Source: a bacterium (GTDB lineage Bacteria; Hinthialibacterota; Hinthialibacteria; Hinthialibacterales; Hinthialibacteraceae). Taken from it: a stretch of 64,000 nt of DNA. Made by a program: the position numbers and the translations under genes. The stretch is from contig CAXXMV010000001.1 in the NCBI GenBank assembly GCA_963662285.2, positions 160,001 through 224,000 on the forward strand. The letters run 5' to 3'. Shown here piece after piece: positions 17,227 to 63,601 of the stretch (its first letter is position 1; every line of letters begins with the position of its first letter). Below the pieces are notes generated by a model. It saw nothing but the letters and a program-made list of their open reading frames with translations. It had not been told where the DNA came from and did not search any database.

Positions 17227-17580
17227 AATAAGTCAAAACTCGAAAAAGAAGGATGAATTGAAGAGATATCACCGATTCCAAAGCGAAATGGTCGATTAAA
17301 CTGATATAGAGATAGTATTAGGTCATTCCCTCTAATGATAAGAATCTTGGAATCCAAGCGGAATCTCCGATTCAGACTTCAATTCCAAGATTCTATGATC
17401 AATATCCAAAGAGGATATCTCTGTATTTATAAAAATCTGACTACATTTTTTTCCTTCTCTGTTATTTCGATTGAGTGATTAAAAAGTGTGTTAAGACAAT
17501 AAAATCTTGAAATTCACTAAAATGTGTCGTAACATACTTAAAACATTTAATTAATTGAAAGTCGAAGAACAAAGGTTCTA

Positions 17581-19596: not shown

Positions 19597-19619
19597 ACAT
19601 GCAACAATTTCTAAAAATA

Positions 19620-19726
19620 TCTTAACAATGCTGAGCGGTTCGTACCTTTGCTCCCTCGCTAAGCTTCGGGAGAACAAAAACACTCGATCGGAATCCCTAC
19701 GGGCATCGCTCAGCGCCGCATTATCT
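19620..19726 (+). repeat. attC-like site
   Basis: TCTTAAC inverse core, GCTGAGCG/CGCTCAGC stem, degenerate core ATTATCT. Confidence 0.65.
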
Positions 19727-19732
19727 CCTAAT

Positions 19733-20746
19733 ATGATGCCACAAGAATATTCAGAAGATTTTGAGACTAAAAATGCAAACTTTGACCGACCCCATATAAT
19801 TTTGCTGGGCGCTGGTGCAAGTTATGCGGCATTTCCTAATGGGGATCGTAATGGTAATAAGTTACCTTTACTTAGAGATTTTGTGAATGTAATTGGCTTA
19901 GAAAAAGAAATGAAGGAAGCAAAAGTTTCTCCACCATATAAGGATTTTGAAAGCATCTATTCAGCAATACATTCTAATCCAGACTTAATACGAGTCAAAG
20001 AATCTATTGATAAGAAAGTTACCGACTACTTTTCAAACTTAGAATTACCCGATGAACCAACCCTGTATGATCACTTGGTTCTTTCTTTAAGGCCAAAAGA
20101 TGTAATCGCTACTTTTAACTGGGATCCTTTTCTATGGGATGCCCTTCATCGTAATCATAAATTTACAGAGGGCCCCTGTGCTCTTTTTTTACATGGTTCG
20201 GTAGCAATATCCAGGTGCCCTGCTTGTGAAATAGTGGTTTCTCGTAGCGCTATAAGATGCCATAAATGTGCTGTCGATCTTGAAAATATTCCCATTCTTT
20301 TCCCTGTAGACAAAAAAGAATATATAACAGATCCTGTTATTGCTGGTTACTGGCGTACTTTAAAAAGAGCCATGAAGATTGCTTGGGTATTTACCGTATT
20401 CGGTTATAGCGCACCAAAGACTGACGTGGAAGCTATAGCACTTCTAAAAGAAGGATGGGGTAGTGCTAATAATCGAGAGTTAGAACAGATAGAAATTATT
20501 GATATCGTAGATGAAGATGCTCTAATAAAATCATGGGAAGAGTTTATACATACTCATCATTATTCTGTTTTAGATGATTTTTATAAATCTTTTGTTGGTG
20601 AGCATCCTCGAAGGAGTTGCGAGGCGTATTGGAATCAAAATATGGAATGCATGTTTATAGAGCCTTACCCAATGCCTCATAATGTACAATTCAATGAACT
20701 TTATGATTGGTTACGACCTCGAATAAATGCTGAGAAAAAGAGATAA
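19733..20746 (+). CDS. SIR2-like NADase-family protein with zinc-ribbon insert
   Basis: ILLGAGAS, ATFNWD, FLHGS, CPAC...CHKC, VFGYS; start moved to ATG 19733 because the longer ORF start lies within the attC. Confidence 0.85.
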   Translation: MMPQEYSEDFETKNANFDRPHIILLGAGASYAAFPNGDRNGNKLPLLRDFVNVIGLEKEMKEAKVSPPYKDFESIYSAIHSNPDLIRVKESIDKKVTDYFSNLELPDEPTLYDHLVLSLRPKDVIATFNWDPFLWDALHRNHKFTEGPCALFLHGSVAISRCPACEIVVSRSAIRCHKCAVDLENIPILFPVDKKEYITDPVIAGYWRTLKRAMKIAWVFTVFGYSAPKTDVEAIALLKEGWGSANNRELEQIEIIDIVDEDALIKSWEEFIHTHHYSVLDDFYKSFVGEHPRRSCEAYWNQNMECMFIEPYPMPHNVQFNELYDWLRPRINAEKKR

Positions 20747-20807
20747 CAAAGCGCTCGTTCGGACGCAAACTACTCTTCGCTTGCGCCGCACATCTTAAAC
20801 GTTAAGG
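20741..20807 (+). repeat. attC site
   Basis: AGATAAC-AAAGCGCTCGTTCGGACGCAA...TTGCGCCGCACATCTTAAAC-GTTAAGG; overlaps the SIR2 stop codon as is typical of cassettes. Confidence 0.8.
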
Positions 20808-20820
20808 AGGAATCACAGCC

Positions 20821-21861
20821 ATGAGCAGGCCGATCTTCATAAGTCATACCGTAGCGAACAAAGAGTTGGCCGATAAGTTTGTGGATCTCCTTGAGACCGG
20901 CGTCGGAATTCCCGACCGTGATATCTTCTGTTCGTCGTTGGAAGGCATGGGAATCCCAAGTGGCCGAAACTTCGTGGATTTCATTCGCGCCCAAATCAAA
21001 GAGCCACGTGTTGTGATACTCCTGCTGTCGCCACAGTATTTTGATAGCCAATTTTGCCTCTGTGAGCTGGGAGCTGCTTGGGTTCTTACCCACCAGCTCA
21101 TCCCACTGCTTGTCCCGCCTCTGGAGTTCAGTGACGTGAAAGCTGTTCTTACAGGAGTCCAAGTCCTCAAGATCAATGACGGTGCCGCGCTCAACCAAAT
21201 GCAGCAGGACTTGATTGATGGCTTGAGTATCAAGGGCAAAGCATTTGCCCGATGGGAGGCCAAGAGGAACAAGTTTTTGGAGTCTATTGAGGGAATCGAG
21301 AAGAGTAGCCCGGTTGCTTCTACAGTCAGCCGAAAAGAATATGACGAACTGAAGCAAAAGTATGATGGCGCTGTGTCCGAAATCGAGTATATGGGTGAAG
21401 AGATTGAGGAGAAAGACGGACTGATAGAGAAACTAAAATCTGCGAAAGACTCAGAGGATGTGAAGGCCATTGTCGCAGAATCTCTCAGCGAAAGAGAGCA
21501 ATTTGATGAGATTGTCTATCGGGCGAAGAACGCTCTGAAACCGTTGCCCTCAATTGTGGAAGAAGCACTGTATTACCATTTCCGAGATGAGTATCTCCCT
21601 TGGCCAAACCCGTTAGATAACGACCGAAAAGACGAAGTCAATCAGGCTATCGAGGAGGACTATTTGGAGGGCCGTGATGAAGGTGTCGAAGTGGTTGAGG
21701 AGGATCCTCGGATTGCCGGGGCCCGCTCGGAACTCTGGGAACTCCGGTCATTTGTGAGCAGTATTGACGAGGAATCAGAATTCAACGACTACTATTCAGA
21801 AACGTATAGTCACCGACTCAATTTCGAGTCGAGACGCTTTTGGGATACACATCTATTTTGA
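20821..21861 (+). CDS. TIR-domain protein with coiled coil and acidic C-terminal domain
   Basis: IFISH, IFCSS, LLSPQYFDSQFCLCELGAAW (catalytic Glu retained); AGGAGG RBS. Confidence 0.9.
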   Translation: MSRPIFISHTVANKELADKFVDLLETGVGIPDRDIFCSSLEGMGIPSGRNFVDFIRAQIKEPRVVILLLSPQYFDSQFCLCELGAAWVLTHQLIPLLVPPLEFSDVKAVLTGVQVLKINDGAALNQMQQDLIDGLSIKGKAFARWEAKRNKFLESIEGIEKSSPVASTVSRKEYDELKQKYDGAVSEIEYMGEEIEEKDGLIEKLKSAKDSEDVKAIVAESLSEREQFDEIVYRAKNALKPLPSIVEEALYYHFRDEYLPWPNPLDNDRKDEVNQAIEEDYLEGRDEGVEVVEEDPRIAGARSELWELRSFVSSIDEESEFNDYYSETYSHRLNFESRRFWDTHLF

Positions 21862-22914: not shown

Positions 22915-23090
22915 ATTCGGCCAGAAATTATTGAATTAGATAACATGCTGATTTGTATACAATTAAAGAAAATCCAAAAGCAGAGGATTAATGATTTTAG
23001 ATTCAATATTTTAAAAAAGAGTGGTCAGAAGGGTGGATAGCGATAAATAATAAATTTTAAAACAACACCATAAGTTCAATAAAATCTAAT

Positions 23091-23133
23091 AGCGGGAGAC
23101 GGGGTTCGAACCCGCGACCCTCAGCTTGGGAAT
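23091..23133 (-). repeat. att site: 3' half of tRNA-Gly(CCC), not a functional tRNA
   Basis: Minus strand TTCCCAAGCTGAGGGTCGCGGGTTCGAACCCCGTCTCCCGCT runs from anticodon loop through T-arm to acceptor; 5' half absent; identical copy at 45569-45611. Confidence 0.92.
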
Positions 23134-44362: not shown

Positions 44363-45241
44363 ATGGTTCAGAAAATTAAAGCCGCTTTACTAGTACTGAT
44401 AGCCTTACCCCTGTTCATTGTTAGTGTGTTCGGCGATCCCGATCCGAATTTTTATATTTTCCTTTGTTTCGGTCAATCCAATATGGAGAGTGGAGGAAAA
44501 ATGGAAGAGGTGGACCGAACCGTCGATTCGCGTTTTCAGGTCATGGCTGATTTTGACAATCCAGAACGCGGGTGGAAAAAGAATAACTGGTATGATGCGA
44601 TCCCGCCTTTATCTGCACGAGGCAAGGGGATTTGTCTGGTCGATTACTTCGGGAGAACGTTGGTCGCCAACCTGCCGGAGAAGTTTCGCCTGGGGATCAT
44701 TTAAGTCACTGTCCCAGGTTGCAAAATCGAACTGTTCGAGAAAGATACGTTCATGACGTACCTTGATACAGAGCGGGACTGGATGAAGAACATTGTCAAG
44801 AACTACAACAATAATCCCTATCAATATCTTCTCGATATGGCCAAAGCGGCGCAGAAGGATGGTGTGATCAAGGGAATCCTGCTCCATCAAGGGGAGTCTA
44901 ATCCCAACGACAATCAATGGCCGAACAAAGTGAAAGGCGTTTACGACAATCTGATCAACGATCTTCATCTCAAGGCTGATGATGTTCCGTTGCTGGCGGG
45001 TGAAACCGTGAACGCCGATCAGGGAGGCGTTTGTGCAGGTTTCAACAAAATTATGGCGAAGTTACCCACGGTTCTTCCCAATTCTTATGTCGTATCTTCA
45101 GCGGGTTGCACATGCCATCCAGACCATTTGCATTTCAATTCAGCAGGATCAAGAATGTTTGATAAGAGATATGGAAAAACTATGCTATCGTTGCTCGCAA
45201 GCAAGACTCCCGATTCAAGCCAGCCTGTCCCATCAATATGA
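44363..45241 (+). pseudogene. CE6/SASA-type acetylxylan esterase with internal nonsense codon
   Basis: FGQSNME, HQGES and DHLHF in one frame, interrupted by TAA at 44702-44704. Confidence 0.85.
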
Positions 45242-45516: not shown

Positions 45517-45568
45517 CAGGGCAGATTCTGTTAAAATAAAAATTTTCGTAAGTCCAATAAAATCAGTA

Positions 45569-45611
45569 AGCGGGAGACGGGGTTCGAACCCGCGACCCTC
45601 AGCTTGGGAAT
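45569..45611 (-). repeat. att site: 3' half of tRNA-Gly(CCC)
   Basis: Identical to 23091-23133; about 200 bp from the tyrosine integrase gene. Confidence 0.92.
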
Positions 45612-45811: not shown

Positions 45812-45824
45812 TAATTTGAGAATT

Positions 45825-46946
45825 ATGGTTCGAAAACAATACCCTTATACTCTTAAACAAGAACGTGGATTTGGCTCCTTGAAACAAGAAGGGCCAAAAG
45901 CGAATTTTAGAATTTTTTATACTCAATCGGATGGAAATACGGGGAAAAAATCGACCAAAACAAGTGTTCCAGAAGAAGCCATTGAAATTTTTGATAGATG
46001 GATAAACGAACAAAAAGCGGGGCGTTATGGAATTCATCAACCTCAATTTCGTCCTGTTATCTTAAAAGAAATCGTCCCTAAATATTTAAGTGAAAAGAAA
46101 GAGCGAGTTAGTGAGAGATACTTTAAGTATGAAGAAAGCACATGGAAAAAAATTATCATGCCCTTCTTTGGTGACGATTCTCTAATAGGAAGCATTTCAG
46201 AAGAATGCATTGAAGAATATCTCCGTACTCGAAAAGAAAAAGGCTTATCGGCTTCAGCAATAAACCATGAGTTGCAATGGATTGACCTATTATTTAAATA
46301 TGCCATCCGAAAAAAGTGGTTACCGGATTATCTAAAACCAACGGTTCGGAAACTACCTTTAAAGAAGACTCTTCCAAATGTACTCAAATCCCCTAAGGAT
46401 TTTATCACTTTACTCGAAGCAGCAAAAAACCAATCAACTCACATGTATTATTTAATTTCATTTGCTCTTTATACGGGAATGCGAGCCGGAGAAATTTTGA
46501 AACTTGATTGGGAAGATATTGATCTAAGTAATGCTTCTCTTATAGTACGCGATCCAAAAAACAAGCACGACCGCATTGTATACTTAACCAAAACACTTTG
46601 TTCTATCTTAGAAGAAACCACTACAGGGAAACGAACAGGCCCTATCATTAAGAATCCACAAACCGGAAATCGTTTACAAGAATATAAAAAAGCATGGAAA
46701 ACTATACGAGAAAAAGCAGGTATCCCAACAACCGGGTCCAATCGAATCCGCTTTCACGATCTGCGTCACTCCTTTGCTACAATTAATCACGCTAACGGAG
46801 TCGATATAAAAATCATCAAAGATCTCATCGGCCACAAGAAAATAGACTCAACGTTAATTTATACACACCTTGTTGATCAGGTTCAAAAAGATGCTATAGA
46901 AAAAATGGATGAGATTATAAGTGACCGGGATCAAAGAAAAACTTAA
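45825..46946 (+). CDS. Tyrosine recombinase/integrase
   Basis: ALYTGMRAGE, PKNKHDR, FHDLRHSFAT, LIGHKKIDSTLIY (R-K-HxxR-H-Y); start ATG 45825 or TTG 45816. Confidence 0.95.
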   Translation: MVRKQYPYTLKQERGFGSLKQEGPKANFRIFYTQSDGNTGKKSTKTSVPEEAIEIFDRWINEQKAGRYGIHQPQFRPVILKEIVPKYLSEKKERVSERYFKYEESTWKKIIMPFFGDDSLIGSISEECIEEYLRTRKEKGLSASAINHELQWIDLLFKYAIRKKWLPDYLKPTVRKLPLKKTLPNVLKSPKDFITLLEAAKNQSTHMYYLISFALYTGMRAGEILKLDWEDIDLSNASLIVRDPKNKHDRIVYLTKTLCSILEETTTGKRTGPIIKNPQTGNRLQEYKKAWKTIREKAGIPTTGSNRIRFHDLRHSFATINHANGVDIKIIKDLIGHKKIDSTLIYTHLVDQVQKDAIEKMDEIISDRDQRKT

Positions 46947-46954
46947 GATGTATT

Positions 46955-47146
46955 TTATTTTTGCGGAATTTCTTGTGAATTTATTACCCAGTTTTCAATA
47001 TCTGATAATTTGAATCGAATATATTTACCACTATTTCCTCCGATTTTGATGAAGGGAATCCGTTTTGCATGCGTTAGTTTATATATATACGATTTAGGGA
47101 CCTGGAGATATTCTGCTACTTGATCAACAGTCATTAAGGTTTCCAT
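46955..47146 (-). CDS. Excisionase-like HTH_17 DNA-binding protein
   Basis: LMTVDQVAEYLQVPKSYIYKL...IPFIKIG...IRF...DIENW. Confidence 0.9.
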   Translation of the reverse strand: METLMTVDQVAEYLQVPKSYIYKLTHAKRIPFIKIGGNSGKYIRFKLSDIENWVINSQEIPQK

Positions 47147-47229
47147 TTTTATTTCCCAATCCTTTACATCTATTCCGTTTCGCATCAGGATTGGCGAGAA
47201 AACCTCACCAATCCTCATTCGGACCGGAA

Positions 47230-47496
47230 CTAGGATCGATTGGATGGAGTACCGCGTCCTTTAGATTTCGGATTTAACTTCGCAAACATGTAAAGATCGT
47301 CTTTGGACGTTGAACTTATTCCATACAGAGCAAGCAAACTCTCAGGAAGTTCGCTTCCAGGTATTTGGATTAAGGATTGGATCTCCTTCCCAATCTTTTT
47401 GAAGACATCACCGATGGGATTTCTTTCATAGTGGATTTGCCCCTGTTCACTTTGTACTTTTTTCGAAACGCCGACAAAAACCATAGTCTCATCCAT
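47230..47496 (-). CDS. Hypothetical protein
   Basis: ORF with AAGGA RBS, co-oriented in the operon. Confidence 0.5.
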   Translation of the reverse strand: MDETMVFVGVSKKVQSEQGQIHYERNPIGDVFKKIGKEIQSLIQIPGSELPESLLALYGISSTSKDDLYMFAKLNPKSKGRGTPSNRS

Positions 47497-47619
47497 TATC
47501 AGATTCCTTTCTTTAAATGAAATTATTTGATGAATACAAACTGAATTCTGATTTTTACTACTGAAAAGGTCTTTAATCTTTTGATTGATTGTTTTTGACT
47601 GTTGCTGAAACATCGCCTT

Positions 47620-48003
47620 CTAATCTTTTTGCATGGTATAGCGAGGATCGTTATGGGAATAAACATTTACAACATTGGCAAAAACACGATCATCGGACTC
47701 TCTGTGTCTGATCTGAATGAAACAATGCGCTCCTATAATACCTTCGAAATCAAGGTTTTTCCCAAGTTCGAAATCTTGATTCGTAAGTTTTAGAGCCCAT
47801 CGAACCAAACGAGAGGAACGATTCATTTCTACTTTACACATCCCATTAACATAAGGATTTTGAAGGTCTTTTTGTAAAATGCGAAAATCGTATTGGGCGT
47901 AATCATTAATGATTGACATTCCAATACATTCTGCTGGATAGACGCCTTCTGGAACAAGTTTGTCTTCTTGCATGATAATGGTTGGGAATTCACTATTTTC
48001 CAT
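47620..48003 (-). CDS. Putative phage-type ssDNA-binding/replication protein (DUF669-like)
   Basis: VPEGVYPAECIG...IIGAHCFIQIRH...FANVVNV pattern; AAGGAG RBS. Confidence 0.55.
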   Translation of the reverse strand: MENSEFPTIIMQEDKLVPEGVYPAECIGMSIINDYAQYDFRILQKDLQNPYVNGMCKVEMNRSSRLVRWALKLTNQDFELGKNLDFEGIIGAHCFIQIRHRESDDRVFANVVNVYSHNDPRYTMQKD

Positions 48004-48030
48004 GATTTTGTCTCCTTAATTTAAATTGTT

Positions 48031-48546
48031 TTACCATTCATTACGGATATGATTTTTAATGTAAGGCGGGAACTCATTCATGACTGGAGATTGCAAAAGT
48101 GTTGGTGATTTAGATCTGGCAAGCCCAATCCATTTATTAAAATCGAATGGACGTTCCAAAAGATAAGATAAAACAATTAAATATGCGTAAGCTTGTTCTC
48201 GTTCGAATTCAGATAATAAATCATGCTGGAGGTTCGATAAAACAGTAATGGATTCCTCATAATTTCCTTGATGATAGGATCGAATCCCTGATTGCATTTT
48301 TAATCTGGATATTTTTAACATGTAAGAATTATTACGAGTGTTGCTATTTGATGGACTGACCGGAACCACGACAGGAAAAGACCTTGATATGGAGGAAATA
48401 GTAGATACTCGGTTCCATGATGATTTTGTTGAACTGGTTCTACATCCACTTGAGAGGATTAACAAAACCAAAAGCGTTCCTGCCATAAGAAAACGAAATC
48501 CCGCCGGAATGGAAATTGCTTTTTTATTGCGTTCCAAGTGATTCAT
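48031..48546 (-). CDS. Lipoprotein with TPR-like helices
   Basis: Lipobox LSSGC, Ser-rich linker, GIRSYHQGNYEESI...AYAYL. Confidence 0.7.
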   Translation of the reverse strand: MNHLERNKKAISIPAGFRFLMAGTLLVLLILSSGCRTSSTKSSWNRVSTISSISRSFPVVVPVSPSNSNTRNNSYMLKISRLKMQSGIRSYHQGNYEESITVLSNLQHDLLSEFEREQAYAYLIVLSYLLERPFDFNKWIGLARSKSPTLLQSPVMNEFPPYIKNHIRNEW

Positions 48547-49403
48547 TTTTTCACCTCAATGATTTGAAATGTTCCTAAAGATAGGTTGACAATGATTCGT
48601 AGATTCTGTTGATCCAAAAGGAGAAAATCACGTTGCATGGGTCTATAGCCTTCTTTTTGAATTGAAAAGTGATGTTTTCCTTCTGATAACGTGAATCTTC
48701 GTGTTGGTACTTCTTGGCTTATTTCTAAAACACCATTAGCGTCTCGAATTGTGAACGAAGCCCAGGGATCACTATGAACCTGCAAAAAGCCAAATCCTTG
48801 TTGATGTGAAGTCCCTTCACTAGGAGTTACAGGAGAGGGAGTTTTGAAGTATTTTTTTTGGGGATTTTGGGAATTATTTTCTTTTTGTGTGTTTGGTTGA
48901 TTTGAATGAGGTAACGAAGCATACAAAAACAAAACCGTTATTCCAAGAAAAGTAGTCAAGGAAATGATATGTAGCAATTTGATTAATTTGAAATTAACAC
49001 TTTTTCTAAATTCCTGAAACCACTTCTTGTAAGAATGAAAATTGAACCTGCGCTTATAATTTTGTATCAGTTCAACGAATTCTTTGAAATCTTTCTTTAA
49101 TTGATTCCAGGAAAAGTTCTTGTCACCTGAATTGCTTTGATAAATTTGATCCCAATTTTTTTTAACAACATCGAGATTTTCCTTAATTTTCGTGTAAGCC
49201 ATTTTCAAGGCATTTATCTCGACTCTTGATGATATTTCATGCAGTTTACGATGAAACGCGCTATCTAAATGCTCTGGAGTCAAAGGCGATGCATCGACAT
49301 CAATGTTCAACGTATCCAAATATTGGCGTAATTGGATGAATTGTTTTTTCATAATCGCCTGCCCATAATACAGGAATGGGTCAGATACGGTGAACGGATT
49401 CAC
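48543..49403 (-). CDS. Membrane protein: degenerate J-like domain, TM helix and PEGA-like domain
   Basis: YLDTLNIDVDAS...LDSAFHRKL...ALKMAYTKI (J-like, no HPD); one TM; GFLQVHSDPWA...LSEGKHHFSIQKEGY. Confidence 0.6.
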   Translation of the reverse strand: MNPFTVSDPFLYYGQAIMKKQFIQLRQYLDTLNIDVDASPLTPEHLDSAFHRKLHEISSRVEINALKMAYTKIKENLDVVKKNWDQIYQSNSGDKNFSWNQLKKDFKEFVELIQNYKRRFNFHSYKKWFQEFRKSVNFKLIKLLHIISLTTFLGITVLFLYASLPHSNQPNTQKENNSQNPQKKYFKTPSPVTPSEGTSHQQGFGFLQVHSDPWASFTIRDANGVLEISQEVPTRRFTLSEGKHHFSIQKEGYRPMQRDFLLLDQQNLRIIVNLSLGTFQIIEVKK

Positions 49404-50376
49404 CGTATCTCATCCAGGCCGGTATTATCATTGGCGGAAATCAATATTTTCAATTTTATGAGTTAGGATTTCGACTTTGCCAGTAGCAAGATCTTTGACT
49501 TCGACAGTTAAAAGAGCGTCGTTATCAATATTGGCTTGAAGTTCAACCTGCGGAGTAGCGTTTTTTTCGAGAGGTTTCAAGTTAATTGTTGCTTGTAAAA
49601 GGATGGCATCTACATTTTCCTCAATAAATTTAGATTTAGGCTCAGAACTGGTAATGGTTATTTTTACTTGTTGCTGTCCTGGACTTTCCGTTCGATATTG
49701 TCCGATTTGTTTATGAGTAGGAATCGGCGTATTTCGAAGGAGAATTGGATCGTTTAACATATCACCGGAATATATATCTTTAATAACAACGCAAATGTCC
49801 CAGGGAAGTACATTATCAATTTTGGGTTTAGGAAGACACTTTTCTGTTCCTTCCGGTTTGATCGTCTCCTCCTCACGCCACAAGCAAGCCAAAACATTGC
49901 CTAAAGCTACATCATGTTGTGGATAATCACTCATCACAATTTCTGCATGAGGAAACATTTCTGCAATTGAACGAATAAAGAGAGGAATTCGTGATGTTCC
50001 ACCGGTTAAAATTACGGTTGAAATATCCATTGAAGAACATTTTGCATTTTGTACGGTCAAACCAACATCATGAAGAATTTTGTCAACAAGAGATTGGAAT
50101 TTTTCTTCGACCTCACTTAAAGATATATCACAGATTAAAAGATCTTTGCTAGATAAAACCACTTTTGCTTTTTCCATTTCTGTCAATTGATGCTTTGCAT
50201 CTTTAGCCGCATATTTAATTTCCGAATTAAGATGGGGATCTTTGGGTGTTTGACCATTAAATAGTTTTTCGACAATTAATTCACAGATGGCATTATCAAA
50301 GTCGATTCCAGCAATGGAGACAGCATGAGTTGATAGAATTTGAAAATGCTTATTGATGGGATCATGCGATCCAATA

Positions 50377-52607
50377 TCAGACCTCCTGATCTGGTGGAAT
50401 TTCATCCGATACCAGTTTGTAGATTAGTCGCAATTCCGTGCCGGGGTAGATGGTTTCTGTGGCGTTGAGATTCGCTGCTAAGTTGCGGGCGGCTTGATCC
50501 GATAGGTGGTTGGTCAAATGGTGCAACTGCACCGTTAAGGTTTTGTTTTCCTCATCCGGAATGAGATCCGCTTCCGTCGCAAATATTTCCCGGATCAATG
50601 AGCGGGCATCGTCGCTTCGGGCCAATTTTGTTCGCACAATCATCGCCATGGCCGTCTCCGCCCGATAGGCGATCATTTTAATCGCATCGAGAAATTGTTT
50701 GCGCGTCGGAGCGAGTTGCAAAAACCGTTCCGGCTCCGGCAGTTGATTAAGCGGCAAGTGCTTGTCAACCGTTTTACGTTCCTCCTTCATCCCGGCCAGT
50801 TCATGCTCCAACTGCTCGATATCTTCTTTGATTTCCCCCTTTTTTTGTTCAAAGGATAAGATATCTTTCTCCTCCACCTGGGATTCCGTCAGCGCCAAAT
50901 TTCCAAACTCCGCCTTCTTTCTTCCCAATCGTCCCGCTTGTTTTTTTATCCGGCCTTCCAAAGAACGATAGGCGGGATTGACCACTTTCACGGTATCATC
51001 CGGCTTGACGAGATCGTAGTCGATAAGCCGATCAATTCCATAGTGTTGCATCATATAACGGAAAAAGTTTTCCTGTGACCATCGCGAGAACATATGCGCC
51101 GCAATACGGGTGAAATCAGAGGCGTAATCCGTACTGATCACCGAGGTTTGGTGACCGCTTTCTGTGAGTTTCCGGATTTCCCTTACCCACAAAACCCGGC
51201 CCAGGAACACCCCTCGCTCAGCCAATTTCATGCGGGATGAATGGCCGCCGGGCATCTCCACATTGACCTCGGTGAATTCCGCTTCCGGCCAATCTTCTTT
51301 GGGATACTTGTTGTAGGTTTGGCAGGCGATGCGGAGCGTCCGCATCTCCGCGAAGAAGGTTGGGCTGTATCCCTCACGGTCAAAGATCATGACAAACCGA
51401 TGGCAATAAGGATTCGCTTCGAGTTGTTGCGGGCTGGGCTGGTTGGGAACATCCTGCAGCAGTTGCGGCGCGATCTCGCGTTTCAACATATCCAGCAATC
51501 CCGCGGTGAACGGCGTGCTCACCACGAAGAACGGATCGCCCTGCTGATCGTTTACCCAATAGTCGGTCGTGCCCCGCATGCACAAGCGGTCGCGCGCCAC
51601 GTACCGTTTGGGGAGCGGAGTTTGCGAGCCGTGATAGACGCGTACGTGTCCATCGATATACAGAACTCCCGCCGCCTCTGGATTGTTATCCATCCAATGC
51701 CGTGACAAGATGCGGCTCCATTGCGCGACCGATTCGGGCGCCGCCAGGATTTTGATCTTTTCCCGCAAGGTCCGCACTTCGGGGATTCGATCCAATCCCA
51801 GCCATTTGCCCCCTTCTCCCGCCGGAAAATAGCGCAACTGTTCGTTGGTCTTGATCCGGATCAAGGCCATGAAAGCTAACAGCAGGAAAATATGAATGCA
51901 GGAATAATAACCTTTGGGCAGGGAGAACAAGGCTTCTGTTTTGGTCAACAATCCATTGGCCGATAACGCCGGCAGCGCCCAAAGCACGCCGCCATTGCAG
52001 ACGTCCAGCGAGGTCTCGAAACGGGTGGGCGCTTCGCTGAGTTGCCCCGTCGCCGCACAGACCCGCTCCACGACCCGCGTACATCCCATCCCCATGGGAG
52101 CGGCATGATCCGCCGCGCTGCGCTGGCTTTTGTTGCTGCCGTTCAGGTCTTTTTTTTTACCGGTTCGGTCAAGCGGCCTGCGCAGATCGCCTTCGACAAG
52201 GTATTCGATTTTAGATTCATTTGCTTCGCTGCTTCGGAACGGCTCACGCCCTGCGATAAGAGGTCTTGGGTTTTTTGCAACACCTCCGGCGTCAGGACAT
52301 GTTCGCTGCGTCGGCGCTGAGTTTTGAAGAATGCTTCCGGGCCTTCCTCGCGGTATTTCTTGACCCATCGCTTCATACTGATGGCGCTGATGCCAAAGGC
52401 TCTAACGATGTCAACTTGGCGGCAGACTCCACTGACCGCCAACTGGCTGGTGAACATGCGAAAACTTTTAAGGTCGGTTTCCCCATGACTGAAAACCGGT
52501 AATCCGGCATGAAAGTAGTACACCGATCCATCTTTTTTTTGATAGGAAATCAACTCGGATATGAATCCTTCGCCTGATGCGAATAGAGGTAATAAGGTCT
52601 GCGGCAT
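50377..52607 (-). CDS. Transposase encoded as orfA (HTH, 52143-52607) plus orfB (DDE), probably joined by a -1 frameshift
   Basis: A9G run at 52149-52158 (PVKKKT* versus GKKKDLN); LYIDGH, IFDREGY, RWSQENFF. Confidence 0.8.
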
Positions 52608-52706
52608 TTTTTTAACTCCCTCATACTCTGCAGGATTGGCCTTCCCTCCAGTATCCTAACAAAATCCCGCGAGAACCGCAAACCACGGGTGAGCTCAGGA
52701 GGTCTG
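50378..52706 (-). mobile_element. Insertion sequence of unassigned (ISNCY-like) family
   Basis: TIR CAGACCTCCTGA at both ends; 5-bp TSD AATAT at 50373-50377 and 52707-52711. Confidence 0.9.
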
Positions 52707-53316
52707 AATATAATTGTCACTCGTTCCTGCTCCGAGATCGATTACAAGCACGTTTCCTCGATTCTGGAGATCAGCCATGAATGAGAGCATCGCAGCAGTA
52801 GGTTCTTCTTGCATACCTACAATGTTGAATCCTGCCTGATTCATAATCTCATTGAGAGTCCTACGCTCATTGGAATCAAAATTAGCAGGATAAGAAAAAA
52901 AACAAGGAATGTCTTGAATGGATATTTTCAAAAGGTTTTCAATCCGCTTTTTTATTTCTTGAAGAAATAACAGGAGTGTTTCATTGGATGTAAAACATGC
53001 CGATTCGCTTGCAGCGTACGTTATTTCGGTATTTTTCAGCCCATTCTTGCCAATAAGAGAAATAATCCCATTACCTAATAACGCGCTGTTTTCGGCTTCA
53101 ATACCTATCAGGTACGAATCCTTTTCCTCAAAACTAATCAAACTGGGTATCAAAAGGTGCCCATTAAAAGAAAGGATATAGAAATAATGCGTTCCATTTT
53201 TTTCAATTGCGAGAATAACCTTGAGACCGCCGTTGCCGATATCGATCCCAAGCCACATTTTACCAATCCCTGAAAGATCAAGCTCCGGGCTGAAGATAGA
53301 CAGATTATCGCGTTTT

Positions 53317-53886
53317 TTACTGGTTATCATTGTTTTCCTCCTCTTTTGGGGATTCATCTTTGGCAAGAATTACGAGGGTTGGTTGAAAATAATGATTTCC
53401 AACGGATGCCCCAAACTGATAAATTTCGACAATAGAGCCCTCTGTGTGATTCTTGTCTGATTCAACCGTATCAAATATCTGTTGGTTCGTAGGATCGAAC
53501 GGATTTTTTTCCAATTCAAATGGATCAGGAATGATAATGCCAATCTGATTCAGGGAATGGAGAAGGATGTCGAGCTGTTTTTTTGCTGTCTTGTGCTGAT
53601 TGGAACGCATATCCTTGGTTTTAACAATCTTATAAAGATTCGTTAAGACTAAACAAAGGTTATGAATACCTATTGTTGCTTCCAGAAGCCGGTCAATATC
53701 TTCACGAATTCGAGTGATCGAGTCGGCGTAACTACCCAAATCATTGATTTGCTTGGAAAATCCATTTTCTTTTATTTCCAGAAGCAATACTTTCATCTCT
53801 TTCAAGAGTTGGATCAGTTGATTGTTTTGATTGTCCGGAAATGCTGAATTGAGTAATTGTTCATCTTGGGAATTCTTCTGACTCAT
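53317..53886 (-). CDS. GrpE-like nucleotide exchange factor
   Basis: Coiled coil followed by PFDPTNQQIFDTVE...GSIVEIYQFGASVGNHYFQPTLVILAK; overlaps the Hsp70 start. Confidence 0.8.
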   Translation of the reverse strand: MSQKNSQDEQLLNSAFPDNQNNQLIQLLKEMKVLLLEIKENGFSKQINDLGSYADSITRIREDIDRLLEATIGIHNLCLVLTNLYKIVKTKDMRSNQHKTAKKQLDILLHSLNQIGIIIPDPFELEKNPFDPTNQQIFDTVESDKNHTEGSIVEIYQFGASVGNHYFQPTLVILAKDESPKEEENNDNQ

Positions 53887-54148: not shown

Positions 54149-54613
54149 ATGAACAGATTCAAACGAAACATACTCAAAGAGGTATGCGAGTCTACGGGTA
54201 TTGATGTCGAGAATATATGTGAATCGAAGTTATATCTGGCTATCGTGCAACTATCCAAAGAATTTCGAATGGAAATTATTGTTGGGAGTATAACAGCAGA
54301 AGCCGGTGATTCCGGTGAACTGACTTTGATTATCCAACCCAAATTTCCTTGTGCGACTTGCATGCGGCTCATGGACAAACCTCAGACACAAATTATTGGA
54401 TTAACACAATGCTGCAGAAGAATCTACTGCAAAAGTTGCGTTTCTTCTCATACAACCTGCCGGAAGTGTGGAACAAAAGTATGCGCATACTGTGGTGAAG
54501 ATTTGCGGCCAATACGAAGAGGATTGGTGATTCACAAAGGGAAATGTTTTGATGAAATGATAAATTCTTTGGAAAACGGCGGACATCTGAATTGGATAAC
54601 CTATAAAAAATAG
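54149..54613 (+). CDS. Multi-cysteine zinc-finger (RING-like) protein
   Basis: CATC, CC..YCKSC, CRKC, CAYC, HKGKC. Confidence 0.65.
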   Translation: MNRFKRNILKEVCESTGIDVENICESKLYLAIVQLSKEFRMEIIVGSITAEAGDSGELTLIIQPKFPCATCMRLMDKPQTQIIGLTQCCRRIYCKSCVSSHTTCRKCGTKVCAYCGEDLRPIRRGLVIHKGKCFDEMINSLENGGHLNWITYKK

Positions 54614-54624
54614 AGCGAGTATCA

Positions 54625-56598
54625 ATGATGAAATTTGATACACCTGAATTCCAAAAAGCAATCGAAAAAATTCGTTTTTTACTCTCGACTCCAGCAGCAC
54701 AAAATGATTGCAGATTGCAACGATACTACGCTCAATTTATCAAACGGCAATCAGAAAAAAAACTAAAGAGGATATTAGAGTATATTAAAAAGAAAGGTTA
54801 TGACAATTATAACCCACATGGAATTCGTATCGTCGATAAGAACGATCCAATTTCTAAGGGAGAGATTCCTCTTGGACATGATTCGGATTATAAAAATCCG
54901 GTTTATTTGACGCTGGATGAAATGGTCAGAAGTGCTTTAATCTGCGCTGAACCAGGTGCGGGGAAAACCTCTGAATTAATCCCACTCATAGAATCAAGTA
55001 TACACCATGGAATCAATCCATTAATTTTTGTAAAAAAACTGCATCAATTTGAATATATTGCAGATCCAAATAACGAACCATTTACTGTATTTGGATTGAA
55101 TGAGTTACGGTATTCAATGTTCGAATGTGATGATGAAACGGATTTTACTTTGTGGTGTCAGTTTATTGCCGGTCTTATCGTAAACATTTACAGTTTACAA
55201 AACAGTGCGGGATATTTGCTGAAAGCGGCAAAACTTTTAGCAGCGGATTGGCCTTTGGAGCGGCGGTTACAAGAAGGATTTCCAACCTGTTTTGATTTAT
55301 CTCAAAAACTCACCTCTCTGAAAACACCTTATCACGACAAAAAATATATTCATAGCGCTAACACCATTTTAATGACTATTTCGGAATCAACAGACCTCTT
55401 TCATGCAAGAAATGGAATGTACCAGTCCATCCTCTCACGGCCAACAATTGTCTATTATGAACCGGGAAAAACACAACTGGTTGAATTACTTCTTTCTTTA
55501 ATGGCGTATCGCTTTAAAAATGAGAATCAGAGATTACAACATGATCAGCGAAAATATTGGCTGATTATTTGGGATGATGCACAGGAATTTTTACTGGGCC
55601 GGATCAGTGATCGACTACCACCGATTGTGGAACTTATTTCCATCTTACGTGAGTTTTTGCTTGGATTTATTTTTTCATTTCAAACATTAAAGCAGATTGA
55701 TCCTCAAATTGCCGCGATTCCATGTACACGGATTGTTGGACGATTATCTGATGCTCACGAAGCCTACAACGCGACCAAAATTTTGGGGATTGACGAAACG
55801 TATGCGCCCCATATTTCCATACTGAACGACGGCCAATTTTTGGTGAAATCGCCGAACAGCCAAGGTGTTGTTTTATTTAAGGGTATTTATAAACCAATTC
55901 CGTTCCCTAAAGATCTGCAACAATGGATGTTGGATAATGAGCAAAGGAAAAGCCTGTATCAATGGACGCCATTTGAATTACAACAAGATGAATCTTTTAG
56001 CAAAAATAATGAAGATATATCAGAACTAGAAACCCGAATTTTCTGGCAGATTTTGAATCATCCTTTTGACACGAGAGACGAACACCAAAAATCTCTTAGC
56101 CTTTCTTCTTCAACAATCAATAAAAACACTCAAAAACTTGTTGATCGGCAATATCTGAAAAAACATAAAATTTCTCATTGGGTTGCTTATGAAATTTTGG
56201 AACAAGGATGGATCTTTTCCAATCAAAAACCGACGGTGCATAAAGGCGGTTACCCGCATGAATTCGCTGTAGATAGAATCCAGCGCATGTTGAACGCAAA
56301 TGGATTCACCGTTCAACGAGAACAAACACTGCCCCCAACAAACCACCCCATCGATCTTGTCGCAATAAAAGATGGCATAATCGTGGCTGTTGAAATCGAA
56401 ACGGGGAAATCAAATATTGTTTCAAATATCTTAAACTGCAAAAAAACAACGGCAAACCAAATTGTTATCGTCGGAATTACGGATATTACAACGAGAAAAA
56501 TTTGTAAAGACATTAAAGATAATCCTGAATTGGAGCCTTCAGTCATGACCAATCGTCTCCAAGTAATCAGCCTGTGGAATTTTTTGCATGAAAAATAA
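54625..56598 (+). CDS. HerA/VirB4/VirD4-like ATPase fused to wHTH and PD-(D/E)xK-like nuclease domain
   Basis: Walker A AEPGAGKT, Walker B LIIWDDAQ, LREFLLGFIFSFQ; C-terminal HEFAV...PIDLVAIK...AVEIETGKS. Confidence 0.85.
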   Translation: MMKFDTPEFQKAIEKIRFLLSTPAAQNDCRLQRYYAQFIKRQSEKKLKRILEYIKKKGYDNYNPHGIRIVDKNDPISKGEIPLGHDSDYKNPVYLTLDEMVRSALICAEPGAGKTSELIPLIESSIHHGINPLIFVKKLHQFEYIADPNNEPFTVFGLNELRYSMFECDDETDFTLWCQFIAGLIVNIYSLQNSAGYLLKAAKLLAADWPLERRLQEGFPTCFDLSQKLTSLKTPYHDKKYIHSANTILMTISESTDLFHARNGMYQSILSRPTIVYYEPGKTQLVELLLSLMAYRFKNENQRLQHDQRKYWLIIWDDAQEFLLGRISDRLPPIVELISILREFLLGFIFSFQTLKQIDPQIAAIPCTRIVGRLSDAHEAYNATKILGIDETYAPHISILNDGQFLVKSPNSQGVVLFKGIYKPIPFPKDLQQWMLDNEQRKSLYQWTPFELQQDESFSKNNEDISELETRIFWQILNHPFDTRDEHQKSLSLSSSTINKNTQKLVDRQYLKKHKISHWVAYEILEQGWIFSNQKPTVHKGGYPHEFAVDRIQRMLNANGFTVQREQTLPPTNHPIDLVAIKDGIIVAVEIETGKSNIVSNILNCKKTTANQIVIVGITDITTRKICKDIKDNPELEPSVMTNRLQVISLWNFLHEK

Positions 56599-59752: not shown

Positions 59753-60064
59753 TTATATCACCTCAAGCCACTCATCACCTTGCATTTCTGCGTAGTATTG
59801 ATCCGTCTCTTCAATTGGCTGCTCGGAGCGATAGTTTGATAGTTCCAGGTAAGTTTCTGCCCGCATCAAGACATAAAGCGCCTTTCGTATATCTCTTGGT
59901 TCAAATACCGTACTTGTCCGCCATTTTCCATCCTTCTTGTATCGTTTGCCAAACGATATTTGAAGGGTTCTTATCTCTTTCCCATCCTTCTTGAAACTCA
60001 CCGGAAATAACGATGCCCGGACATTTTCTCTATCAAATACCTGTACTGGTTTTTTCTTTTCCAT
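59753..60064 (-). CDS. Small beta-rich putative nucleic-acid-binding protein
   Basis: KPVQVFDRENVRASLF...KRYKKDGKWRTSTVF..RDI with acidic tail; GAGGTG RBS. Confidence 0.65.
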   Translation of the reverse strand: MEKKKPVQVFDRENVRASLFPVSFKKDGKEIRTLQISFGKRYKKDGKWRTSTVFEPRDIRKALYVLMRAETYLELSNYRSEQPIEETDQYYAEMQGDEWLEVI

Positions 60065-60512
60065 GTTTTCACCTCGCAACGATGGCGATACCCGATTGTC
60101 CATCGTTGCACAAAGCTTAAATAGAAGTTCATGCACTCTTTATGAGTCCTAAGTGACAACGATTTTGACCGGCTACAGAACCCGCAACATGCGCTAATCC
60201 AACAAAAAAGAGCAGCGATATATTCGAACGCTAATGGAAAGGAGACGTCTATGGTGCAATACTCAAGCCCACCAATAACCGACATCTTTCAGGATTTGGA
60301 AGTTTGGGTGATTCATCACCCATTAGGAGCAGTATTGCTCGTTTTGATAGCATGGGGCCTCTGGTTCCGCAAAGATCGCGGGTATTAACCAGTGATCTGG
60401 TCAAAATCAGGCGATGCGAGGATTCATCTTCGCATCGCTACTTTCTTTTAGGGGTGAATCTTTTGCACAAAAGATTGGGTGGGTGGGATTCAATTAATCA
60501 AAAAAAGCCGCA

Positions 60513-60920: not shown

Positions 60921-61292
60921 ATGAATTCCGTGATTCTTTATTCCCGGTGTGGAATTACTCGTGAGGTATTCTTGATTGTCTTTTGTCCAAATCAATCAAA
61001 CGGTTACGACTTTATCGAAACGAGAAAGGCCTATAGTTCACAGAATGGAATTACAAACAACAAGAGAATAGTGATTGGGAACATGAATTGGACCAATTAT
61101 AGCGGCTGTCCCTATTGCGAAAACCTCTGGCTTGTGAAGTGTAATCGATGTAGCTACCTGACCTGTCTAGGTCATATTATTGGCAAAAATTTTGTTTGCC
61201 AGTGGTGCCTAAGTCCTGGAATTATTGATGGCGTCTTTACGGAATTGGAAGGAACTCAACAACAAATGCCAACCGGTATTACGAGGTTTTGA
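60921..61292 (+). CDS. TerY-C-like metal-binding protein
   Basis: GCPYC...KCNRC..LTC...CQWC...G cysteine pattern. Confidence 0.65.
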   Translation: MNSVILYSRCGITREVFLIVFCPNQSNGYDFIETRKAYSSQNGITNNKRIVIGNMNWTNYSGCPYCENLWLVKCNRCSYLTCLGHIIGKNFVCQWCLSPGIIDGVFTELEGTQQQMPTGITRF

Positions 61293-61295
61293 ATC

Positions 61296-61880
61296 ATGCA
61301 AACAAATATTGTAGGAGTAGAGGAATCTTGGAATCCTGTGACCGATTGTAACAAATCGAGCTTTGGAAACCAGAATAACCAGGCAGATCAAATGCCTTAC
61401 CGGCTGCAGGCTAAGGGGAAACAGGACAATTCAAAAAGATTTCAAGTGACTTGTCACAGTGCCGAACTCAAACGCCCGTTTTCGTGGAAAAATCCCCGCT
61501 TGGTGTTCGTCAATTCTACAGTTGATCTATTTCATGACGATGTCCCTTTGAATTTCATTTACGGAGCATTTCTTGTCATGTCTCATACGAGACAACACAC
61601 TTATCAAATATTGACGAAGCATTCTGAACGGCTTCTTGAACTTAACTCCGAACTTCGCTGGGAATCGAACATCTGGATGGGAGTTTGCGTGGAAGATCAA
61701 GAACATCTTTACCGGATTGAACATCTCCGTAGAACCGGTGCTACCAATAAACTTGTATCGTTCAAACCAACGTTTGAATCAGTGACAGACATTGATCTGA
61801 CCGGTATTGATTGGGTGATATCTGGTGGTGAATCCGGTCCAAGATTCCGGCCAGTAGATCGGAAGTGGGTGCGAAGATGA
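61296..61880 (+). CDS. DUF5131 / phage Gp37Gp68-family protein, degenerate
   Basis: SWNPVT, FVNSTVDLFH, HTYQILTK, NIWMGVCVE, IDWVISGGESG; cysteine motif lost and C-terminus short. Confidence 0.8.
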   Translation: MQTNIVGVEESWNPVTDCNKSSFGNQNNQADQMPYRLQAKGKQDNSKRFQVTCHSAELKRPFSWKNPRLVFVNSTVDLFHDDVPLNFIYGAFLVMSHTRQHTYQILTKHSERLLELNSELRWESNIWMGVCVEDQEHLYRIEHLRRTGATNKLVSFKPTFESVTDIDLTGIDWVISGGESGPRFRPVDRKWVRR

Positions 61881-61920
61881 AAATTGTCGGTCGTAATGTT
61901 CAAGGAAAGGATAATAAAAA

Positions 61921-62235
61921 ATGAAAAAGCAAGATATTAAATTAGGGAAATTTTATGTGGTTCGAAGAAGAGGATATCGGACAATTGCAAAAATTGTTAG
62001 AAGAATGCCAACACAAAAGATGTTTTTCTTTTCAAATCACCCTCCACGCCAATATTTACTTGTTGGCGGTTATGACTTTGCAATTGGGAAACAATTTGAG
62101 GTTTTACCTCAAAATGCTCTATGCGAAGTAACAGAACAACAAGCAAAGGACTTTGCAAAAACGAACGGGATTAAATTTGATTCTTGCCCAGAAGTAAAAC
62201 ATTACGACGAAAACCGGAAAACTTCTCTATTTTGA
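61921..62235 (+). CDS. Hypothetical protein
   Basis: AAGGA RBS, operonic position. Confidence 0.5.
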   Translation: MKKQDIKLGKFYVVRRRGYRTIAKIVRRMPTQKMFFFSNHPPRQYLLVGGYDFAIGKQFEVLPQNALCEVTEQQAKDFAKTNGIKFDSCPEVKHYDENRKTSLF

Positions 62236-62260
62236 TAAAAGATAAGCATTCACAAAGGAT

Positions 62261-63601
62261 TTGAAAATGACAATTCATATTCGACACGATGAAGAAAAAA
62301 TTATTTCTTCGCTTTTTTCGCATAATTCGCATGGTGAAGATGAGATTAACTTACCAAGCAAACCATCTTTATCACCCGATGCGATTCCAGGAGAACTGGG
62401 TGATTTCATCCATAGCGCCACATGTAATAGTGAAGCAAATCCGGCAGCTGTTCTTGCCACTTTTCTTGTGCGATTCAGCACTGAAATTGGAAATGGACCA
62501 CATATTTATGTTGGAGACGAACCACATTTCGCGCGTTTGTATGTGGCAATCGTTGGAACCAGTTCAAAAGCACGCAAAGGAACATCAATGGCTTCAGTTC
62601 GAAGCCTTTTTGAATTAAAGGATTGCACCCATTGCCAAATTACTCCCGGACCACTTAGCACGGGAGAAGGGCTTATTTACTCCGTACGCGATCCGATAAA
62701 CAAATGGATTCCTGGCGATTTAGCCGATGAAGGCAGATTTGAAATGATTGATCCCGGTATCGAAGATAAAAGAATCTTCGTTATTGAAGAAGAATTCGCA
62801 GCCTCTCTTGCGAACGCACAAAAAAAACAAAATACGCTAAGCCCTATTTTAAGATTACTTTGGGATAGTGGCTCATGCTCACCAATAACAAAAACCAACA
62901 AAATTTCAACAACCAATGCGCATGTTGGGATTGTTAGTCACATCACTACAACGGAATTGCACTCACGGCTTGGAAATACCGATATACACAATGGTTTTGC
63001 GAACCGGTTCATTTGGATTCTTTCATATAGAAATAAAAAAGTTTCGTTTCCCCGCTCCATCCCGGAAGATGACATGAACCGCTACAAACAGTGGTTATTT
63101 GAAACACTGAAAATCGCCCAATCAAAACAGAAAATTGAATTTAGTGAAGACGCAATCCAATTATGGGATGAGATCTATGAACAAATATCTGATGAAAAAC
63201 CGGGGATCATTGGCTCCATTTGCAATCGGGCCGAAGCTCAACTGATCCGCCTTTCTTTGATCTATGCATTAATTGACCGCAAATCAATTATTGAGCCAAA
63301 CCACATTAAATCTGCATTGGCATTTTGGAAATACGCTGAAGAATCCGTCAAATATATATTTGCCTATAAATCACAAAATTCGCTCTCTAATCGAATCATG
63401 GACTAGATGAAAGAAAAAAGAGAATCCTCGTTAACCGATATTCACGCACTTTTCCAAAGACACGAAAAAGCGGAACACATCAATCTTACAATCCAAGAAC
63501 TCGAATCAAGCGGATTTATTGAAATCGTTAAAGAACAAACCAATGGAAGGCCTAAAACCATTTTTAAATTAAGCGAAAAATGCGAAGAAAGAGATAATTG
63601 A
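62261..63601 (+). pseudogene. DUF3987/YfjI-like P-loop replication protein with C-terminal wHTH, split by an in-frame TAG
   Basis: IVGTSSKARKGT, STGEGL, VIEEEF, GFANRF; TAG at 63404-63406 is followed in the same frame by LTDIHALFQRH...GRPK. Confidence 0.75.

Follow-up and report, generated by a model that had tools for sequence, protein, structure and literature searches.

What would an Hsp70 without a lid, accompanied by a GrpE-like protein and a membrane partner of its own, do for an integrative element? The role of lidless DnaK proteins is an open question, and lidless DnaK derivatives of unknown function have been reported in bacteria (PMC13580251; this and the other papers cited by number are used here for what their accessible text states). 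The question is raised by a 64-kb window, the whole stretch of DNA analysed here, from the genome of a member of the Hinthialibacteraceae (contig CAXXMV010000001.1; all coordinates are positions in this window), in which a four-gene chaperone module lies on the minus strand of a locus read from 53886 to 46955. The genes encode, in minus-strand order, a GrpE-like protein of 189 aa, an Hsp70, a 286-aa membrane protein, a probable lipoprotein of 171 aa, the products of two open reading frames (ORFs) of 127 aa each, and an excisionase; they successively overlap by 14 nt, are 24 nt apart, overlap by 4 nt, and are separated by 27, 6 and 11 nt. The chaperone module continues without a break into the ssb-like and excisionase (xis) genes, and the co-oriented, tightly packed arrangement noticed in a preliminary description of this locus was confirmed, no gap exceeding 27 nt. 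We take the locus to hold a real copy, inactivated by an insertion sequence (IS), of a dedicated Hsp70 module, in a variant for which no description was found. Our leading explanation, which we put forward tentatively from sequence and gene order, is that it represents the private Hsp70 module of a compact integrative element family, equipped with a swappable membrane-linked adaptor, which would remodel the element's own machinery.

The Hsp70 gene is found in two parts on the minus strand. The 5' part (52708..53330) encodes the nucleotide-binding domain (NBD) up to the phosphate-2 motif and matches Pfam HSP70 (E 3e-14) as well as Hsp70 structures in the PDB; the 3' part (49428..50376; Pfam HSP70, E 5.5e-21), which aligns to DnaK 214-502, encodes the rest of the NBD, a degenerate linker and the beta part of the substrate-binding domain (SBD-beta), with no lid. 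Between them, just after the phosphate-2 motif, lies an IS of 2331 bp (50377..52707, minus strand), bounded by inverted repeats of 16 nt and accompanied by a target duplication of 3 bp. Reading across the IS is in frame and yields 522 aa, the junction having the same length as the corresponding stretch of the intact homolog P0003; the preliminary description had likewise reconstructed about 522 aa, and was silent on the disruption. Because the IS splits the coding frame, the Hsp70 gene is broken in this genome, and with its Hsp70 inactivated the module here is probably dead. Both halves exceed the Pfam HSP70 cut-off, and the protein has the actin-like NBD motifs of the superfamily (phosphate-1, EPxxA, phosphate-2, adenosine) and the SBD-beta. 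The helical lid, the conserved linker and the J-docking residue set of a canonical DnaK are, on the other hand, lacking: the protein is about 25% identical to DnaK, each of its halves scores 47-73 bits against NCBIfam DnaK cut-offs of 648-822 (the HscA cut-offs lie likewise far above), and it stops where SBD-beta ends, no residue lying past the DnaK 507 column, just as had been proposed for a divergent Hsp70 without a lid.

This architecture is not peculiar to the window. A profile search over 1.84 billion representatives returned seven close relatives (P0003 and P0006-P0011), with E values from 1e-296 (the seed) to 4e-61, the next match being at 5e-51, and together with the window protein they form a clade that received 100% support in three trees. 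Five of these seven are full-length, lidless proteins of 508-556 aa that end within 6 residues of the SBD-beta end, and the other two are partial; identity within the clade is 29-49%, which indicates fast divergence. Lidless length is common more widely, since a survey of 148 proteins other than the window's own counted 68 with 485-560 aa, and only distant Hsp70s, none close to that of the window, were found in the plasmid and phage collections. When the clade was mapped onto E. coli DnaK (locus L126, which also provides the numbering), D8, G10 and K70 were retained in all seven of the eight rows that have an N-terminus, and E171, D194, T199, D201, G341 and G342 in all eight. Position 11 is N instead of T in 7/7 rows, T12 is also changed, R167 is absent from 8/8, and the DVLLLD linker is replaced, reading KPKIDN in the window. 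J domains contact DnaK at R167, Q378, L391, P419 and D477 (PMC8215388); at these sites the window protein reads G, A, I, P and N, and parts of its J-docking face have gone. An AlphaFold model of P0003 (mean predicted local distance difference test, pLDDT, 54) gave Hsp70 structures only among the matches listed, with E down to 3e-28. In P0003, the closest of the intact homologs, subdomain IB also contains an insertion at residues of about 105-145 that consists of a short tandem repeat.

The same homologs bear on the simplest alternative, a decayed dnaK operon remnant devoid of special function. The Hsp70 is indeed broken by the IS and all components but HSP70 score under curated family cut-offs, but five intact homologs, equally lidless and divergent, retain the same catalytic residues, and the four module genes contain no stop or frameshift besides the IS. 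We regard this alternative as very improbable; decay is largely refuted for the family and applies only to the present state of the copy in the window. The IS itself encodes a helix-turn-helix (HTH) ORF (52143-52607, minus strand) and a Transposase_29 ORF (50377-52368, minus strand; PF21804, E 1.5e-201), and stands out by a GC content of 53%, against 36-38%, and a third-position GC (GC3) of 0.62, against 0.26-0.39 in the module. Its two ORFs overlap at a run of A (52143-52165), a possible programmed frameshift site, and the IS had no match in the plasmid and phage collections.

The gene upstream of the Hsp70 (53317..53886, minus strand) is best read as encoding a GrpE-like nucleotide-exchange factor, as had been claimed. 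The single protein matches Pfam GrpE (PF01025) with E 8e-5 and NCBIfam GrpE with E 1.6e-5, its Pfam score of 22.8 bits lying under the curated cut-off of 25.8, and a word-index homolog search recovered only its own sequence (1 of 63 candidates). The assignment gains from relatives: a profile built from nine element-borne GrpE-like proteins matched this gene alone among the 732 frames of the window (E 0.007), and a joint alignment of the window protein with the nine relatives matches a solved GrpE with E 3e-8.

Relatives of the pair were found through a GTDB pattern scan, which gave at least 119 loci, 80 of them with flanks, mostly Patescibacteria DnaK, so that the locus counts that follow are not a census; none of the loci scores at the level of the window clade, and a GTDB scan with the clade motifs matched 152 stretches and 0 relatives of this clade. 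A complete Hsp70 of at most 560 aa was present in 12 of the 80 flanked loci, among the matches listed. Two of the short Hsp70s, from myxobacteria (L037 and L079), were left out, as they group in a different branch and showed no GrpE-like gene upstream, and the remaining related loci, again among the matches listed, number ten (L011, L018, L029, L035, L051, L058, L059, L070, L083 and L086), seven from Planctomycetota, one from Verrucomicrobiota, one unclassified and one from a Woesearchaeota bin. A GrpE-like gene stands directly upstream of the lidless Hsp70 in all ten. Directly downstream comes a vWA gene in eight (L018, L029, L035, L051, L059, L070, L083 and L086); L011 stops at the contig edge, and in L058 an ssb gene and then a vWA-like ORF were seen by eye. 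A gene for a small YggT-like membrane protein is next in 7/10, a HerA-like ATPase gene with a winged helix-turn-helix (wHTH) in 6/10, and an integrase or serine recombinase lies within the DNA covered in 5/10. The window element shares with these loci both the ATPase family and a PC4/ssb-like family, and its ATPase gene is divergent from grpE, as in L035. In a careful tree, a branch with 91/92 support separates the Hsp70s of the window clade and of the vWA type from DnaK and from the J-type plasmid cassettes. The lidless Hsp70/GrpE pair sits in an element backbone operon together with a HerA/Ced-like translocase, ssb/PC4-like, excisionase and integrase genes. What follows the Hsp70 can be exchanged, vWA and YggT-like genes standing there in the relatives and J-like/transmembrane (TM)/PEGA-like and lipoprotein genes in the window. 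By sequence similarity, the GrpE-like protein and lidless Hsp70 are a recurring part of the window's element family. The preliminary description had argued for a dedicated, element-borne and non-housekeeping Hsp70 system, and both the distinct lidless clade and this recurrence on related elements support it; the intact four-gene loci that it had suggested looking for elsewhere were not found, and the pair alone recurs, in the ten loci. The GrpE-like/lidless Hsp70/vWA/YggT-like cassette, which lacks a J domain, is more widespread than the form in the window and merits a study of its own.

The third gene (48543..49403, minus strand) encodes the 286-aa protein, which consists of a J-like domain (about residues 25-82), a helical linker, one TM helix (146-164), a Pro/Ser-rich linker and a PEGA-like beta domain (about 205-286); its N-terminus is predicted to be inside, since four K/R residues precede the TM helix and one follows it. 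The J-like domain has no HPD motif, and the loop between helices II and III is shortened. Compared with Pfam, NCBIfam and the PDB, this N-terminus had no J-domain match, its hhalign comparison with J domains gave a probability of 10% (E 0.003), and a narrow profile of HPD-containing DnaJ scored it no higher than 22 of 1000 shuffles did. The best named atlas family for the protein is DnaJ (0.81), which serves as a lead only, and a single-sequence AlphaFold model (pLDDT 38) was unusable and its fold search uninformative. The best matches are the HPD-less J domains of cassettes (with TPR, J, GrpE and Hsp70 genes) on two cyanobacterial plasmids; one of these domains is itself recognised by Pfam DnaJ (E 7.6e-8). 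With that protein the window domain shares 16 identities over 55 columns (E 2e-5 as a single comparison), and the alignment score of 63 was attained by none of 3000 shuffles, whose maximum was 43. Because this match was noticed after the fact, a reverse search is the fairer figure: among 5220 locus ORFs, the two cyanobacterial HPD-less J proteins rank as the top two, with E 0.034 and 1.2. A J-derived fold for the N-terminal domain is likely, short of proof, and the HPD-less J-like domain of the preliminary description stands on its similarity to other HPD-less J domains rather than on a curated family.

The claim that a TM helix joins this domain to an external PEGA domain held for the helix and its orientation. 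The PEGA assignment is weakly supported: PF08308 is matched with E 0.012 at 15.9 bits, under the cut-off of 20.8, and the atlas neighbours of the domain are PEGA clusters (0.75-0.76), again a lead only. Of the proposed TPR lipoprotein (48031..48546, minus strand), the lipoprotein part is probable and the TPR part unconfirmed. A hydrophobic stretch is followed by LSSGC at Cys35, a signal that failed a strict lipobox regular expression, and the C-terminal part is helical; Pfam TPR gave no match and the TPR-profile score was reached by 65 of 1000 shuffles, which is not significant. Pfam and NCBIfam scans placed the protein in no family, the nearest entry being the NCBIfam TssQ lipoprotein at E 0.18.

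Could the conserved unit then be the GrpE-like protein and Hsp70 only, the J-like/TM/PEGA and lipoprotein genes being unrelated downstream cargo? A word-index search for the 286-aa protein recovered its own sequence only (1 of 184 candidates), a J-TM-PEGA gene is absent from all ten related loci, and both PEGA and TPR remain under threshold. Yet the top two of the 5220 ORFs in the reverse search are HPD-less J domains that lie beside GrpE and Hsp70 on plasmids, and the J-like gene, which begins 24 nt past the stop codon of the Hsp70 gene, agrees with the module in GC3 and shares an overlap with the lipoprotein gene. We consider the cargo explanation unlikely. An HPD-type J ORF was not found by motif in the ten related loci either, and a vWA gene, looked for across the whole window, was not found there. 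The trans-envelope character that had been attributed to the system was seen in the TM helix of the window protein, with no sign of conservation: no J-TM-PEGA homolog came up among the 184 candidates, and vWA and YggT-like genes occupy the same slot in the relatives.

The module belongs to the left end of a tRNA-integrated element, as can be deduced from the integrase, the adjoining tRNA-Gly 3' half and the drop in GC; the far end lies outside the window. The tyrosine integrase gene (45816..46946, plus strand; Pfam Phage_integrase, E 2.5e-31) faces the excisionase gene (46955..47218, minus strand; HTH_17, Pfam E 3e-13; TIGR01764, E 1.7e-14), and a tRNA-Gly(CCC) 3' half (45549..45611, minus strand; partial Rfam tRNA match, E 0.48) forms the attachment site. 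At this boundary the GC content drops from 44% to 36-39%, so that integrase, excisionase, boundary tRNA 3' fragment and GC shift, the marks of a tRNA-integrated mobile element, are all present. Between the lipoprotein and excisionase genes lie the two 127-aa ORFs, both on the minus strand: an ssb-like element gene (47620..48003), for which we infer an OB-type product and which matches the NCBIfam NGO0469 replication initiation family under its cut-off (E 2.6e-7), and a small ORF (47230..47613) with no family match in Pfam or NCBIfam. Promoter and terminator scans gave chance-level results only.

Divergent from grpE, on the plus strand, are a Cys-rich, zinc-finger-like gene (54149..54613), recognised from its sequence, and 3' of it the ATPase gene (54625..56598), whose product combines a HerA/FtsK-superfamily ATPase with a wHTH and a PD-(D/E)xK-like domain and matches the ATPase profile of the related elements with E 4.7e-29. 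Walker A and B motifs are present, and the family matches HerA, the DNA-translocating ATPases CedD/CedB and coupling proteins; the plasmid and phage collections held no match to the window protein. An identity of its C-terminal domain as Replic_Relax or MOB_C was considered and dropped, Pfam giving no support. L035, L051 and L070 have a Cys-rich gene at the equivalent position, with no homology detected between these and the one in the window. Further into the element, the PC4/ssb-like gene (59753-60136) matches the related-element family with E 2.9e-9, and replication-side genes follow at 60921-63601, comprising a TerY-C-like metal-binding ORF, a DUF5131 (radical-SAM-like) gene, a DUF3987 primase/helicase-like gene and a wHTH ORF.

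On the other side of the integrase, the 63-nt attachment site is found as a direct repeat, its copies at 23071-23133 and 45549-45611 being 92% identical; the tRNA-Gly(CCC) 3' halves are 22.5 kb apart, which suggests tandem integration at a single site. The 22-kb segment between them, which may be an island in its own right, carries many glycoside hydrolases (GH43, GH62, GH95, GH10). Next to the attachment site, an apparent frameshift divides a SASA-family esterase into two ORFs (44363-45241). The stretch 15805-21861 contains, beside an IS630, another ATPase-wHTH-nuclease gene of this element family (E 7e-30), truncated at its 5' end; the HNH-PNP-EAD7 fusion, unassigned 372-aa ORF and TIR (SpbK-like) protein that follow it resemble a defence cassette on an element remnant.

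With the parts in place, the leading explanation can be spelled out. The Hsp70 lid slows client release (PMC8215388), and the lidless Hsp70 would bind its clients briefly, cycling with its own GrpE. The J-like adaptor would recruit it to the inner membrane as a tether, and not through the canonical HPD-R167 trigger, with the PEGA-like domain and the lipoprotein anchoring the adaptor in the envelope. There the Hsp70 may remodel or assemble the element's membrane and nucleoprotein machinery, that is translocase, excision or replication complexes; the element's own complexes are the likeliest clients because the pair shares its operon with the translocase, ssb-like and xis genes. The stabilisation of the TorI excisionase by the host's DnaJ (PMC3509656) is a precedent for chaperone help in excision. 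In a bolder form, which we consider rather unlikely, the lidless Hsp70/GrpE motor would belong to the core of a minimal HerA/Ced-like DNA-transfer machine in an undescribed element family, coupled to the envelope by swappable adaptors.

Several observations weigh against a private, self-serving module. The exact four-gene cluster was found nowhere else and is a single case so far, the seven closest Hsp70s are known as proteins alone, and the related loci come from counts that fall short of a census. The window clade and the vWA-type Hsp70s form a polytomy in which a sister relation is without support. The idea that HPD and R167 are strictly lost together was dropped, since R167 is changed in the Hsp70s of three of six HPD-less partners and not in those of the other three. 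The putative clients of the module are proposed from gene context. Finally, defence-type cargo is carried by the second ATPase-family remnant in the window and by several relatives.

This last point favours a close rival, which we judge possible though less probable, namely that the module is a defence or conflict cassette in which the Hsp70 would act as an NTP-dependent sensor or threshold switch that, by way of the J-TM-PEGA/lipoprotein arm or the vWA arm, notices phage proteins or damage to the envelope and sets off a response. Its precedents are the HSP70, GrpE and DnaJ-FNIII/TPR theme of the GAP1-N2 systems, with PEGA among the extracellular fusions (PMC7159879), fusions of EACC1 proteases with lidless DnaK-like domains (PMC12642450), Hsp70-like domains and a TerY vWA in CoCoNuTs (PMC11090510), and bioRxiv 10.64898/2026.10.19.760177. 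The fast divergence of the window clade and its weak match to PADLOC PDC-M61B (E 8.5e-7 to 0.03) point the same way, as do the defence-type genes beside related loci (STAND-TPR in L051, Schlafen in L086, NYN in L011) and those of the remnant (HNH-PNP-EAD7, TIR). Against this, the cassette has no recognisable effector and no strong PADLOC match, no GTPase, GAP1, protease or McrB gene adjoins it, the vWA-type Hsp70, GrpE and vWA of L035 have no PADLOC match, and the Hsp70/GrpE pair holds a fixed place in the backbone operon of the related elements.

An extra DnaK system could also be general stress-tolerance cargo that boosts host proteostasis, for instance as an Hsp110-like co-chaperone of the host DnaK. 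Such a role has been proposed for truncated DnaK paralogues (PMC13580251), and ordinary dnaK operons occur on plasmids. The Hsp70 of this module, however, has neither lid nor conserved linker, lacks T11/T12 as well as R167, comes with a GrpE and a membrane-linked partner of its own and is co-oriented with ssb-like and xis genes, which makes such a role improbable for it. Returning to the element-serving module that we favour, the locus ties one class of lidless DnaK to the backbone operon of an integrative element, where this class is accompanied by its own GrpE and by a third partner that can be exchanged, J-like or vWA, which suggests that a vWA protein can replace a J protein. It provides a natural case of an Hsp70 with a J-like domain in which the HPD motif and the docking residue are both gone. 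The question of the lidless role is testable, since short natural cassettes exist, and if the role of the module lies in DNA transfer or in defence, Hsp70 would join the machinery that mobile elements bring along.

How does this arrangement compare with known systems? With the DnaK-DnaJ-GrpE triad it shares an NBD and SBD-beta with the catalytic residues, and GrpE-like and J-like partners in one operon, but it differs by the missing lid and DVLLLD, the changed T11/T12 and R167, the absent HPD, scores far under the NCBIfam DnaK and GrpE cut-offs, and its location on an element. E. coli HscC-DjlB/DjlC (PMC8215388) is likewise a specialised Hsp70, with a lobe I deletion, with its own membrane-associated J partner and with a canonical HPD that is dispensable (HPE). 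HscC, however, keeps a shortened lid (550-580 aa) and uses no GrpE, whereas the window protein has no lid, a GrpE-like neighbour and a partner without HPD; membership in HscC found no support from a family match, and neither the shortened lid nor the lack of a GrpE applies to it. The GAP1-N2 systems (PMC7159879) resemble the module in their HSP70, their GrpE, their J domain fused to a beta-sandwich and their membrane-proximal role, and in their wider form include PEGA, TPR and vWA. Their HSP70 theme is mainly actinobacterial and firmicute, while the window cassette stands in an integrase/xis/HerA backbone; among the ORFs scanned at 45.8-63.6 kb no TRAFAC GTPase or GAP1 gene was found, the element extending past the window end. 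The DnaK-like domain fused to EACC1 proteases (PMC12642450) is also a lidless Hsp70, proposed as a sensor and not a folder, but is about 50% identical to DnaK and comes with a protease and effector, against about 25% and a stand-alone protein without effector here.

Mobile, dedicated cassettes are the closest in kind. The two cyanobacterial plasmid cassettes (NZ_CP064921 and NZ_CP151103), known as database annotations, combine Hsp70, GrpE and an HPD-less J protein, but their Hsp70s belong to other branches of the tree and have about 94 residues after SBD-beta, and the J protein is soluble, without TM helix or PEGA. The HPD-less J proteins of the cyanobacterial plasmids (L004:6072-6368 and L005:5824-6120) have partner Hsp70s that carry Q at DnaK position 167. 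A Rhodococcus plasmid (NZ_CP070617) has, by annotation only, a mobile dedicated triad of Hsp70, J-TPR and GrpE with FtsK, the Hsp70 being again of another branch. There (L001:6989-13859), the lidless Hsp70, J-TPR, GrpE, FtsK/SpoIIIE and small helical proteins lie beside Tn7-like tniB/tniQ.

Among surveys, PMC10410713, whose accessible text leaves PEGA unmentioned, kept HPD-less J domains out of its main set, PMC11019930 deals with canonical DnaK duplicates, and the accessible text of bioRxiv 10.64898/2026.01.13.699239 mentions neither HerA, Hsp70 nor planctomycetes. No description of a GrpE-lidless Hsp70-vWA or J-PEGA cassette on integrative elements was met in the literature searched, most subscription papers and supplements lying outside it, in line with the preliminary description, which had not recognised a described system. 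The parts are of known kinds, and plasmid accessory cassettes of Hsp70, GrpE and J are known; this variant is undescribed in the literature searched.

A eukaryotic system offers a further comparison. In the mitochondrial import motor, mtHsp70 works at the membrane with Mge1, a GrpE, and with Pam18/Pam16, the J-like subunit without HPD included. The likeness is an analogy only, as the window encodes no HPD-bearing J partner and no Pam16 homology was detected; should the DNA-transfer version of our proposal be true, the module would be an element-encoded bacterial counterpart of such a membrane-tethered Hsp70 translocation or assembly motor.

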